Below, in pieces: positions 17,683 to 19,672 of a stretch of 21,426 bases of DNA. Origin of the DNA: Escherichia coli (GTDB taxonomy: Bacteria > Pseudomonadota > Gammaproteobacteria > Enterobacterales > Enterobacteriaceae). How positions within the stretch are numbered: the first letter of the stretch is position 1; the number at the start of each line of letters is the position of its first letter. The notes beneath the pieces were generated by a model. That model was given only the letters and a program-made list of their open reading frames with translations. It was not told where the DNA came from and searched no databases. The DNA lies in the NCBI RefSeq assembly GCF_003334765.1, contig NZ_QOWT01000047.1. One strand, written 5' to 3'. Position numbers and translations under genes: made by a program.

Positions 17683-18636
17683 TTAGAGTCTTTTTCGTAC
17701 AGATGAACGGGGGATCTCTGGCTTCATTTCTTTTAACAGGTCTTTTTTCTCTCTTGCTGCGATATAAGAAAAAATCTTATCGGAGTCAGAACGCTGTCTG
17801 AGTATATCGTCGTCCATTCGGATACCATTTCGAATGAACCATTTCACACTTTCTATGCCGGTGTAGATACCAATATGTTTATCATGATAACAATTATAAA
17901 ACTGAACATGACTGATATCGGTATATTTTTTCAGTGAGGTAAAGAAGTACTTCATGTTTTTGACATATAATGCGAAGGAACAGTGTTCAGCGATAAGGAT
18001 ATTACGCCCTTTTTCATGAAGCAAAGCAATTAGAGGCAAAGCCTCAGTTGAAACATGTTTAAATAATACTGGCGTGCTGTCTATTCTATCAACATGGCGT
18101 TTGAGGGCATTAATACTGAAATCATATATCCACCACTCGTTGTCAGTCGGAAGATCCAGCACCGCTTTGCCACCATAATCTCTGTGGTTTATGTCACACC
18201 CTTTATTTACCCAGTAATCAAAGACGTCATGATCGAGGAGGTCATAAAGAAGCGTTTGTCCTTCGTTATCTGTGCTGTGGATATCAATGCCCGCGTTTAT
18301 GAGGAGTTCCGCACAATCTATGGCGTAGCGCTGCCAGTGAAGACAGGACTGGCCTTTATTATTTTTGTGGTGAACGTTAATACCTGACTTTATCAATAGC
18401 CTCACTGCACGTGGGCTTTTTCTGCTAAACAGGGCATTATTACCATAACAATCTGTATGGTTCAGCGCTATGCCTGCTTCAATCATGGCTTTTAAAGCCC
18501 CGATACTGTCGCAACCGAAAAGGGCGTTTTCACCGTGTTCATTAAGTGTGTTAATGTCAATGCCTGCAGCAATGCAATTCTGGACGTCTTTTTTAGTTTT
18601 GCTGTCAAATAAATTATCTTCTGTATAGTTACTCAT
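17683..18636 (-). CDS. Ankyrin-repeat protein (317 aa) with a C-terminal domain of unknown function
   Basis: AAGGAG RBS 8 nt upstream of ATG. At least four ANK-like repeats in residues about 20-150 (…GENALFGCDSIGALKAMIEAGIALNHTDCYGNNALF…AVRLLIKSGINVHHKNNKGQSCLHW…AELLINAGIDIHSTDNEGQTLLY…). C-terminal about 150 aa has no recognisable motif. Confidence 0.8.
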   Translation of the reverse strand: MSNYTEDNLFDSKTKKDVQNCIAAGIDINTLNEHGENALFGCDSIGALKAMIEAGIALNHTDCYGNNALFSRKSPRAVRLLIKSGINVHHKNNKGQSCLHWQRYAIDCAELLINAGIDIHSTDNEGQTLLYDLLDHDVFDYWVNKGCDINHRDYGGKAVLDLPTDNEWWIYDFSINALKRHVDRIDSTPVLFKHVSTEALPLIALLHEKGRNILIAEHCSFALYVKNMKYFFTSLKKYTDISHVQFYNCYHDKHIGIYTGIESVKWFIRNGIRMDDDILRQRSDSDKIFSYIAAREKKDLLKEMKPEIPRSSVRKRL

Positions 18637-18650
18637 GGGCGTTCTCCTTT

Positions 18651-19091
18651 TTAAGCGGTCGTTTTGTGCCAGGTATTATTGTTGTATTCATATTCTTTTA
18701 TCTTAATGATCTCGTCATAGATCCGTGAAAAAGAAAACCATGAGATCTCTTTCACTTCGCCTTTTTTGTTTGTGTAAATGATATTGCAGCCACGAAAAGA
18801 AAATGACTGATAGAAAGTATCGTGATTCTCCTCTTTAAGAAAACGGGTAAAAGCTTTTATGGTGTCTTTTTTTTCCATGCTATAAGAGAAAAAGGTATGG
18901 ATAGCAAATATGGTCAGAATATTTCTTTCCGTCACCATATGTCTGGAAAAATAATTAAGATAAAAAACATGATCTTCAATGCTATTTTTACAGAATATTG
19001 AAAAGTGAGGGTTATACAGACGGTAGAGATCTGTATTCTTTTTTGTTTTAGATAGGTAACTTGTCAGGGTTGAATAGTTTTGTTTTTTCAT
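18651..19091 (-). CDS. Hypothetical protein (146 aa), first gene of the ankyrin operon
   Basis: AAGGAG RBS 8 nt upstream of ATG; stop lies 14 nt before the ankyrin start; Lys/Phe/Tyr-rich; no recognisable motif. Confidence 0.6.
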   Translation of the reverse strand: MKKQNYSTLTSYLSKTKKNTDLYRLYNPHFSIFCKNSIEDHVFYLNYFSRHMVTERNILTIFAIHTFFSYSMEKKDTIKAFTRFLKEENHDTFYQSFSFRGCNIIYTNKKGEVKEISWFSFSRIYDEIIKIKEYEYNNNTWHKTTA

Positions 19092-19672
19092 TTTTATTCT
19101 CCTTTATTATTTTGATGAAATGAATGTATATTATCAAATAAATAAAAATCAAATTTATTTTTAATAATAAAAAATAAGCAAGCGTTTTCTTTTGAATAAA
19201 CTAATTTAATGTGATGTTTTATATAAATAAATTCATAGTTTGCAAAAAGTGCTATTTTTATTTCATGGTTGATTGATGGGCGTTTTTCCCCATTGCTTAG
19301 GGGGAAATATATCCCATTAATATTAAATGTTTGAAGTGAATCGTATTTTAGCAGGGGAATATTATATCTTTTACTTCTGTTTTGATTTTCAACTTTGTGT
19401 GTGAGACACAATATGTGATAGTGTTGTGATAATCGTAAGTATCCTGCCAAAACGAATCATTCACTTTAAACCTTTACTGACATATTGGTTATATATTCTG
19501 AGAAATTTATAGTGCAAAAGGCTCGGTGTGCAGACTTACGCCAGCCCAATCAAGCCGTAGTGCTTTAGTTTTGGGGCTTAGGTATGGTGGAAAAAAGCGA
19601 CTCGTTAAGCTTACTGAGCTCTATGTATTTCAGGAGTCGGTCAGTAAGTTAACGATCCAAGAGGCTCATCAA

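Follow-up and report, generated by a model that had tools for sequence, protein, structure and literature searches.

Introduction

In the leading-region anti-defence islands described by Samuel et al. (2024; PMC11541004), the relaxase is placed in the lagging region and the anti-defence genes are found on the T-strand. Here we describe a gene pair with a comparable arrangement, orfA-ank, which is carried by an integrative mobilizable element (IME) within a 21,426-nt stretch of Escherichia coli DNA (contig NZ_QOWT01000047.1), called the window throughout. The two genes lie first on the non-relaxase side of the mobilization genes and are oriented toward the presumed origin of transfer (oriT), a position and orientation that would fit the leading-region definition of that study (PMC11541004). 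Plasmid homologues of orfA cluster with genes for orphan methylases, for an ArdC-like zincin and for toxin-antitoxin systems, and, as in the described islands, the proteins are small and uncharacterised and their alleles divergent. The locus departs from those islands in belonging to an integrated element, in having neither an Frpo promoter nor homology to anti-restriction, anti-CRISPR or anti-SOS proteins, and in its apparent control by a marbox.

Leading-region proteins pass through the conjugative type IV secretion system (T4SS) (PMC8406263), and Arg-rich C-terminal signals have been described for VirB/D4 substrates (PMC10025392). Compared with conjugation-delivered proteins (PsiB, SSB and ParB of the F plasmid, ArdC, Sog) and VirB/D4 substrates, Ank, which may be transferred likewise, is similarly encoded beside the presumed transfer origin and has a disordered C-terminus of net charge +4 to +8 with the form R/K-R/K-R/K-L; it is unrelated to them in sequence and fold, however, and its 291-306-aa paralogues have no such tail. 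The Legionella/Coxiella Dot/Icm effectors AnkY/LegA9 and AnkH/LegA3 also combine ankyrin repeats with a non-ankyrin C-terminal region and a signal-like tail, but they belong to different hosts, their C-terminal domains are unrelated to that of Ank, and no Dot/Icm system is present here. Finally, SGI1-type IMEs encode helper-manipulating factors such as CtiC (preprint 10.1101/2025.04.21.649884). Like these, orfA and ank are IME backbone genes beside mobilization genes; the likeness is one of gene placement, without homology.

Results

orfA and ank form one unit at a fixed place in a mobilizable element

The coordinates of the two genes and their signals are collected in Table 1. The Shine-Dalgarno sequences AAGGAG stand at good spacing, 7 nt ahead of each ATG, and the 14 nt between the orfA stop codon and the ank ATG (18637-18650) contain the ank ribosome-binding site; the AAGGAG sites and the 14-nt separation had been recorded in an initial annotation of the window. 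The orfA Shine-Dalgarno region, AATAAAGGAGAATAAAAATG, is near-identical across all IME alleles and the orfA-like genes of plasmids. About 90 nt 3' of the ank stop codon, every allele has a hairpin followed by a T-run, the stems of which are unrelated in sequence and have folding energies of -7 to -17.5 kcal/mol. Because of the close spacing, the ribosome-binding site in the gap, the conserved promoter region that orfA has of its own and the hairpin with T-run after ank, the genes are read as a separate two-gene transcription unit with the hairpin as its putative terminator, and the operon first proposed is upheld. The ratio of nonsynonymous to synonymous substitution rates (dN/dS) is 0.1-0.4 for both orfA and ank. 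This indicates purifying selection, and both are therefore genuine genes.

The GC content is 25.3% in the upstream segment 19092-19450, 32% in orfA and 40% in ank. The AT-richness previously noted for a leader of about 360 bp is thus real, but the upstream end given to that leader was set by a 118-aa open reading frame with a TTG start (19094-19450) that proved spurious, and only about 190 nt are conserved.

The pair is part of an island that adjoins ypjA and tRNA-Ile in the ssrA region of the E. coli chromosome. In the annotated order, DUF6387, an AlpA-like gene and small unknown genes are followed by the relaxase gene, mobC, ank, orfA and cargo, and the far end holds genes for two ParB proteins, a resolvase and an integrase; the integrase, resolvase and ParB genes are near a second, P4-like element in the ssrA/ypjA region. 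No T4SS genes are present within the island. The element, with a relaxase, an accessory protein and an integrase and without a mating-pore system, is an IME, and the mobilizable element postulated earlier is borne out by the MobC homologue and the PF03432 relaxase downstream of the pair. The whole window occurs at an identity of at least 99.9% in 56 of 5,426 complete E. coli genomes and the pair at no less than 99% in 62 of them; relatives of the pair are found in 159, and none of these copies is on a plasmid. A near-identity search of the pair against plasmids gave no match; the element is chromosomal.

More than 20 loci from seven genera (Escherichia, Salmonella, Citrobacter, Klebsiella/Enterobacter, Superficieibacter, Pseudocitrobacter and Kluyvera) preserve the order (variable cargo)-orfA-ank-mobC-relaxase-92-128-106..., so the neighbourhood survey that had been advised found orfA and ank adjacent in all of these. 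The upstream cargo varies: an ars operon, a MarR gene with dehydrogenases and GmrSD/HEPN genes, or, in the window, fragments of a restriction enzyme. Since the position of orfA-ank is fixed amid changing cargo, the pair belongs to the backbone. It had been singled out as an undescribed module riding on the element; its families are indeed undescribed, and the view of it as the leading candidate for something new in the window is justified, but the pair belongs to the backbone and not to the cargo, and any role for it is conjectural.

Ank joins variable ankyrin repeats to a conserved orphan domain

Pfam Ank_2 matches residues 73-153 of Ank (E=5e-6). A register anchored on G36, G65, G95, G126 and G156 resolves five short repeats, where about four had been counted before, and the sequence has the tandem repeats of about 30-33 residues and the framework (G-x-T/N-(P/A)-L-H/F with L-L-x-x-G-A/I-D/N-x-N) that define the ankyrin family. 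Among 27 family members this framework is kept, and hypervariable positions fall just before the anchor glycine and at +5 to +12. From canonical ankyrin repeats rather than from placement on a structure, we take these positions to be the tips of the hairpins and the first helix. Conservation in Ank is highest at residues 255-295, within the C-terminal domain. Variable binding positions together with a conserved C-terminal domain are what would be expected of a protein whose recognition surface varies while its functional domain stays constant.

Residues ~161-317 matched no Pfam family, even when every family member was scanned, and PDB sequence-profile searches returned nothing under E=0.7. 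Foldseek comparison of the C-terminal domain with AFDB50 retrieved only uncharacterised enterobacterial proteins with ankyrin repeats and the same C-terminal domain (Ank-CTD proteins). An exhaustive profile search with the domain against 1.84 billion representative proteins yielded 29 matches, mostly Ank-CTD proteins or fragments of them, and in this search the domain was not found fused to any other domain. Large multi-repeat matches, for example the 1,077-aa P0160, were rejected as generic ankyrin proteins that match a vestigial ankyrin-like stretch of the domain, VKWFIRNGIRMD.

For the pair as a whole, Pfam (searched with single sequences and with every alignment member), NCBIfam, PHROGs and PADLOC gave only generic ankyrin matches. 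The best NCBIfam matches, Legionella AnkY and AnkH, reach 22-25 bits, the cut-off being 600, and span the ankyrin repeats only; the repeats also match the PADLOC candidate PDC-M72A weakly and in part (E=3e-8). No system model of PADLOC-DB 2.0 was matched, and OrfA matched nothing in that database. Homologues of OrfA or Ank are absent from 50,697 phage records. No toxin or antitoxin family was matched by either protein, so that the pair does not classify as a type II toxin-antitoxin system, and searches by sequence and by fold detected no toxin, nuclease, TIR, SIR2, pore-former or other effector domain. AlphaFold models of OrfA and of Ank at less than full length are confident and are without structural relatives. 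Both proteins represent undescribed families, and the C-terminal domain of Ank is an orphan fold. The initial annotation had recognised no motif in the ~150-aa C-terminal part and no family for the 146-aa partner, which agrees with the searches for Pfam families in the former and for Pfam, NCBIfam, PHROG and PADLOC families in the latter, and the structure prediction that it recommended produced the confident models just described. The three roles that it listed as typical of ankyrin-repeat proteins (secreted effector, toxin immunity protein or scaffold of a defence system) gained no direct support here, neither an effector domain nor a PADLOC system being found.

The protein ends in a basic tail, which reads ...IPRSSVRKRL in the window. 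The last 25 residues have a net charge of +4 to +8 in all family members of 317, 328 and 412 aa, and the tail is absent from a subfamily of 291-306 aa. An unstructured, positive, Arg-rich C-terminus, as is characteristic of T4SS substrates with charged C-terminal signals, is thus present in Ank, which might be translocated by such a system.

The orfA leader contains a marbox-like site shared with T1-like phages

The conserved leader is 70-100% identical from -170 to +9 in most alleles, as compared to 60-75% inside orfA; identity is lower in parts in L024 and L027, and below -81 in L034. Its motifs reappear ahead of the plasmid orfA-like genes. The sequence GCACTTTTTGCAAAC in the window fits the asymmetric marbox pattern GCACnnnnTGnTAAA with one mismatch, and other alleles, GCACTTTTTG(A/C)TAAA, fit it perfectly. 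At this place the 15-mer pattern is present in 9 of 11 orfA leaders, all except those of L034 and L015. Sites of the form GCACnnnnTGnTAAA, among them GCACTTTTTGCAAAA and GCACATTTTGTTAAA, were mapped for MarA/SoxS/Rob/RamA in Salmonella by chromatin immunoprecipitation sequencing (PMC10268841), and MarA, SoxS or Rob may bind the leader site as well. The overlapping 14-mer AATAGCACTTTTTG occurs exactly once, and at the same place, in 13 of 41 loci, which include IMEs and plasmids.

A second, stronger promoter is predicted about 100 nt downstream of the IME marbox. About 90 nt before the orfA ATG the alleles share the consensus GAAAACG(C/T)TT(G/T)C, which is a perfect palindrome, GAAAACGTTTTC, in L024 and in plasmids L020/L021. 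Presumably this element is akin to operators of the LacI family (PurR/Cra-type) with a central CG, and it hints at a second regulatory input for orfA. An Rfam scan of the leader returned nothing. Two other readings of the conserved motif were discarded, a sigma54 promoter because by eye its spacing is two bases short and an Lrp site because the match is weak.

The 14-mer AATAGCACTTTTTG also recurs many times in viral contigs of 45-52 kb, including that of phage TLS (Drexlerviridae; L162, NC_009540.1). TLS contains 16 exact GCACNNNNTGNTAAA sites, where 0.24 are expected by chance. All 16 are co-directional with local transcription and are followed after 19-20 nt by a -10 hexamer. Behind this come a Shine-Dalgarno sequence and the ATG of a gene, either early or non-structural; the dam and dcm regions are among those behind the sites. 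This element was reported in 2024 as a 21-nt direct repeat of TLS, aaATAGCACnnnTTGnTAAAA, and was left unexplained, a stoperator, an enhancer site or an UP element being suggested (PMC11447400). The repeat is not connected to MarA/SoxS/Rob in that paper, and no paper was found that links the T1-like 21-nt repeat to these regulators. Class II marboxes are in forward orientation with their centre near -40, overlap the -35 position and have no -35 hexamer (PMC10268841), and this geometry is found at 16 of the 16 TLS sites. The one annotated TLS regulator that was checked is Cro/YdaS-like and not AraC-like. To judge by the arrangement of these predicted sites, host activators of the Rob/MarA/SoxS type may be required for early transcription in Drexlerviridae. 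If so, the TLS repeat as a class II MarA/SoxS/Rob promoter would supply an early-transcription model for a classic phage family and would connect the success of these phages with the signalling of bile, redox and antibiotic stress.

The orfA leader shares with the TLS repeat the exact 14-nt core AATAGCACTTTTTG and with the class II promoters the marbox pattern, but it differs from both in geometry: the distance from the site to the -10 hexamer is 19-20 nt in TLS, whereas in the IME the nearest -10-like hexamer, TATAAA, is 14 nt away.

The pair consists of old alleles, and each gene occurs without the other

Between the window and L027, identity is 86% for mobC, 87% for the relaxase, 97% for o91 and 96% for o132, as against 60% for orfA and 42% for Ank. 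The synonymous divergence (dS) of the pair is saturated at 1.5-2.7, and this, with a dN/dS of 0.1-0.3, rules out positive selection as the cause of the divergence; the alleles are therefore old lineages exchanged by recombination under purifying selection. Recombination can also split the two genes, since L004 and L010 are 86% identical in orfA and 62% in Ank. The o91 gene (91 aa, window 15381-15656, after the relaxase) likewise has two deep alleles (52% vs 92-97% identity; L004 and L026 vs the window), which sort independently of the orfA and ank alleles, and the whole backbone is a recombination mosaic.

Either gene can be present alone, and the initial view of a tightly coupled pair does not extend to an obligate module. 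The orfA allele P0088, 71% identical, has the order cargo-orfA-(312 bp)-mobC-relaxase with no remnant of an ankyrin gene; with 604 collection blocks it is the most widely recorded of the orfA alleles looked up. Conversely, Ank-CTD paralogues of 412, 330, 328 and 291 aa occur without orfA, and some elements have an extra paralogue (Ank328-orfA-Ank316-mobC). In Klebsiella an int-resolvase-ParB-ParB-Ank412 island is located at ssrA, without orfA; elsewhere an int-Ank412-Ank291 islet and an Ank412 gene adjoining Gabija-like OLD+UvrD genes were found, both also without orfA. In the laboratory strain E. coli C (L041, NZ_CP020543.1 1137368-1162089), a decayed island at ssrA has the order Ank328-orfA-Ank (split by the insertion sequence IS3)...Ank330-SIR2. 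It contains three Ank-CTD paralogues, an orfA with marbox, a SIR2-family gene and the R subunit of a type I restriction enzyme, and no mob genes.

On plasmids of 23-45 kb that are marked by DotA/TraY/DUF927, orfA-like genes that are 46% identical form one-directional blocks with the genes of two orphan N6-methylases, which they closely precede, either immediately or with 1-3 small open reading frames in between, and have an ankyrin neighbour only sometimes. In pSA20130280.1 a one-directional block contains genes for the orfA-like protein, an ankyrin-only protein, RelE/NadS, a zincin/ArdC-like protein and an LPD7 protein. This plasmid block of methylases, ArdC-like protein, LPD7 and RelE/NadS has the make-up typical of anti-defence islands. 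An oriT was not located on the plasmid relatives. At 17.4-19.7 kb of pSA20130280.1 (L015, NZ_CP038594.1), a stretch without annotation, there is a perfect inverted duplication of about 1.1 kb with mirrored open reading frames, and the record is flagged linear. The DotA/TraY/DUF927 'plasmids' of 23-45 kb are typed as non-mobilizable and may be linear replicons with hairpin ends, or mis-assembled.

Discussion

A possible establishment or counter-defence module

As the explanation that we favour, though we put it clearly below an even chance, orfA-ank would be a module for establishment or counter-defence that is switched on when the element enters a new host. As a rule, the side opposite the relaxase enters the recipient first, and orfA and ank would be the first two genes on that side of the mobC promoter/oriT region. 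Since their transcription runs toward the presumed transfer origin, the transferred strand would, if transfer has this polarity, be their template. OrfA could be the constant component, which travels with its own conserved promoter region and on plasmids also precedes orphan methylases. Ank would be an add-on recognition factor whose hypervariable ankyrin positions may bind a host protein that itself varies, for instance one involved in defence or regulation, while its conserved orphan C-terminal domain would perform a constant step and its Arg/Lys tail may permit carriage through the T4SS of a helper plasmid. Expression in a naive host might be driven by resident activators of the MarA/SoxS/Rob type through the marbox. 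An entry module is favoured by the fixed slot, the plasmid context of methylases, an ArdC-like protein and toxin-antitoxin genes, the deep alleles with a variable surface, the charged tail and the promoter element shared with phages.

Several observations weigh against such a module. A widespread orfA allele has neither an ankyrin gene nor a marbox. Ank-CTD paralogues occur in islands without transfer genes and near Gabija-like, SIR2 or type I restriction genes, which fits defence or other cargo equally well. Neither protein resembles known anti-defence proteins or folds in the comparisons made (ArdA, ArdB/KlcA, ArdC, anti-CRISPR proteins, PsiB and others). The IME marbox has a spacing other than that of class II sites. 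A single-strand promoter of the Frpo/ssi type was not recognised, the folding of the leader being no better than that of shuffled sequences on both strands (z -0.46, -0.12). Finally, no nick site or validated oriT was identified in the alleles, and the term leading region rests on a rule of thumb. RP4-like nick motifs of the ATCCTG type, present on the plus strand, differ from allele to allele; a conserved minus-strand block considered as a nick site is better read as the mobC promoter TTGACT-N16-TATCTG; and comparison with the oriT regions of the IncQ2 relatives pGNB2 and pWES-1 gave no similarity.

In a more far-reaching form, which we consider unlikely, enterobacterial phages, plasmids and IMEs would share one immediate-early promoter class fired in a naive host by the host's own activators of the MarA/SoxS/Rob type, and in the IME this would drive a two-protein entry module, with OrfA as an early factor and Ank as a modular inhibitor of a recipient defence or regulatory protein, possibly delivered by the T4SS ahead of the DNA. 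If the establishment or counter-defence explanation given first is right, two new protein families, one of them with a new fold, would join the conjugative entry and counter-defence toolkit on abundant, little-studied IMEs, genes of this kind could be controlled by host stress regulators instead of single-strand promoters, and Ank, with its hypervariable surface on a constant domain, would be a natural probe for a host factor that limits the establishment of incoming DNA. The pair would be placed among the entry-side genes of transmissible elements, and the link between marbox and phage repeat is the most directly testable by-product.

Alternative functions

Anti-phage defence or abortive infection, which we consider unlikely, would have the ankyrin repeats sense a phage protein, the C-terminal domain execute the response and the T1-type element respond during infection by T1-like phages. 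The pair does lie at the edge of defence-rich cargo, with a restriction-enzyme fragment in the window and GmrSD/HEPN genes and AAA_15 ATPases in relatives, and Ank-CTD paralogues lie by Gabija-like OLD+UvrD genes, share an island with SIR2 and type I restriction genes in E. coli C, and sometimes form diverged arrays. The promoter element exactly matches the T1-like phage core, and the PDC-M72A match of the repeats, although weak, is to a defence candidate. The position of the pair is constant, however, unlike that of true cargo, and no effector domain is recognisable by sequence or fold. In addition, the phage element has the look of a normal MarA/SoxS/Rob site of the host and would therefore require no phage factor to fire it; the TLS regulator that was checked is Cro/YdaS-like. 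The plasmid orfA-like genes upstream of orphan methylases have a counter-defence arrangement. Should the pair nonetheless prove to act in defence, it would represent an ankyrin-based system of a new kind. A decayed copy of the locus is present in E. coli C, where the downstream ankyrin gene is split by the insertion sequence.

Control or assistance of mobilization is likewise improbable. OrfA would be a DNA-binding regulator or a relaxosome accessory protein, Ank an adaptor to helper coupling proteins or a manipulator of the helper, and the alleles would reflect helper specificity. OrfA is basic and helical, its conserved promoter-plus-gene unit suggests autoregulation, and in all intact IMEs compared, including those without ank, orfA accompanies the mob module; the decayed island of E. 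coli C, on the other hand, retains orfA without mob genes. An orfA homologue is also present on conjugative-type plasmids, which are possible helpers, and one preprint reports IME-encoded factors that act on helper relaxosomes (10.1101/2025.04.21.649884). Against such a function, a terminator-like hairpin stands between the operon and mobC, mobC has a promoter of its own, the orfA-like genes of plasmids are located with methylases and not with transfer genes, and Ank-CTD paralogues are found in islands without mob genes.

A toxin-antitoxin-like addiction or exclusion module that stabilises the island or blocks related elements is quite improbable. The small size and close spacing of the two genes, their location on a mobile element, deep allelic types as possible marks of specificity groups and the RelE/NadS genes beside plasmid homologues would be in keeping with it, but similarity to toxin or antitoxin families is lacking, each gene is commonly found without the other and recombination separates them (L004 vs L010). 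Neither protein has, by inspection, a membrane segment or signal peptide, as would be needed for entry exclusion.

That Ank is a eukaryote-directed effector with its C-terminal P-x-KRKRL as a nuclear localisation signal, for which the Legionella Dot/Icm proteins AnkY and AnkH as best NCBIfam matches and a tail that we take to resemble classical monopartite signals could be adduced, is highly improbable, since those matches are far below the cut-off and confined to the repeats, the gene is tied to bacterial conjugation genes, and the hosts are commensal or environmental Enterobacteriaceae, of which, to our knowledge, some genera lack type III systems, with no secretion system at any of the loci examined.

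Table 1. Positions of the features discussed, in window coordinates unless phage TLS is named
Feature	Position	Strand	Description
Conserved regulatory leader	19092..19260	minus	better conserved than coding sequence
14-mer AATAGCACTTTTTG	19243-19256	minus	overlaps marbox-like site; exact core of T1-like phage repeat
Marbox-like site GCACTTTTTGCAAAC	19238..19252	minus	predicted MarA/SoxS/Rob/RamA site
Near-palindrome GAAAACGCTTGC	19178..19189	minus	LacI/PurR-type operator-like; sole exact match in window
Proximal sigma70-like promoter	19125..19152	minus	predicted; TTGATT-N16-TATACA (TATATA in other alleles); block AAATTTGATTTTTATTTATTTGATAATATA in all alleles
orfA Shine-Dalgarno sequence	19099..19104	minus	AAGGAG, 7 nt ahead of ATG
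orfA	18651..19091	minus	146 aa, isoelectric point 9.3, basic orphan protein; first gene of operon
orfA start and stop codons	19091-19089; 18653-18651	minus	ATG; TAA
ank Shine-Dalgarno sequence	18644..18649	minus	AAGGAG, 7 nt ahead of ATG, within 14-nt gap
ank	17683..18636	minus	317 aa, ankyrin repeats and orphan C-terminal domain
ank start and stop codons	18636-18634; 17685-17683	minus	ATG; stop
Ankyrin repeats	18157..18579	minus	five short repeats, residues ~20-160; Pfam Ank_2 and conserved framework
C-terminal alpha/beta domain	17752..18156	minus	residues ~161-295, orphan fold
Basic C-terminal tail and stop codon	17683..17751	minus	P-x-[KR][KR][KR]-[LMI]-COOH; conserved, low model confidence (pLDDT)
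Terminator-like hairpin	17575..17607	minus	13 bp and T6, ~90 nt past ank stop; alternatively an inverted repeat of oriT
mobC promoter	17512..17539	minus	predicted; TTGACT-N16-TATCTG; most conserved block of ank-mobC spacer
mobC-like gene	17074-17481	minus	135 aa, 40% identical to MobC of IncQ2/MOBP small plasmids
Relaxase gene	15842-17077	minus	PF03432 type; directly downstream mobilization module 15842..17481
TLS GCACNNNNTGNTAAA sites, examples	1526, 4064, 6481, 30225, 35846, 38303, 39627 (phage TLS)	plus	
TLS GCACNNNNTGNTAAA sites, examples	45827, 48192, 48916 (phage TLS)	minus	

Neighbouring genes

The relaxase contains at residues ~268-282 (window 15842-17077, minus strand) a (Pro-Val)n linker, PVPVPVPVPVPVPVP. 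Its length ranges from 399 to 425 aa between loci, which may reflect length polymorphism of (Pro-Val)n. An inverted repeat, GTTATC...GATAAC, flanks the mobC ribosome-binding site (17483-17517, minus strand) and has compensatory changes in other loci (ATTATC/GATAAT in L001, CTAAC/GTTAG in L027); it could hide this ribosome-binding site in the mRNA or be part of oriT.

Directly upstream of the leader lie fragments of a type II restriction endonuclease gene (PADLOC REase_II, E=7.5e-42; DUF4928, partial) at 19673-19945 of the window (minus strand) and at 33596-34052 of L003, a decayed defence cargo at the junction of cargo and backbone. A three-gene cargo on one strand (349 aa, 332 aa and a 301-aa protein with a RelA/SpoT domain; window 20776-21372, plus strand; L003 34708-37717) gave only a weak match to the candidate PDC-S33 in PADLOC and may be an undescribed nucleotide-signalling defence or toxin module. 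The open reading frame of 1,569 aa at 4550-9259 of the window (plus strand; L003 18602-23182) is the ypjA/ehaD autotransporter adhesin gene, which is annotated as a pseudogene with an internal stop in the matching genome, and the alpha-amylase-like and ypjCB genes beside it are also disrupted.

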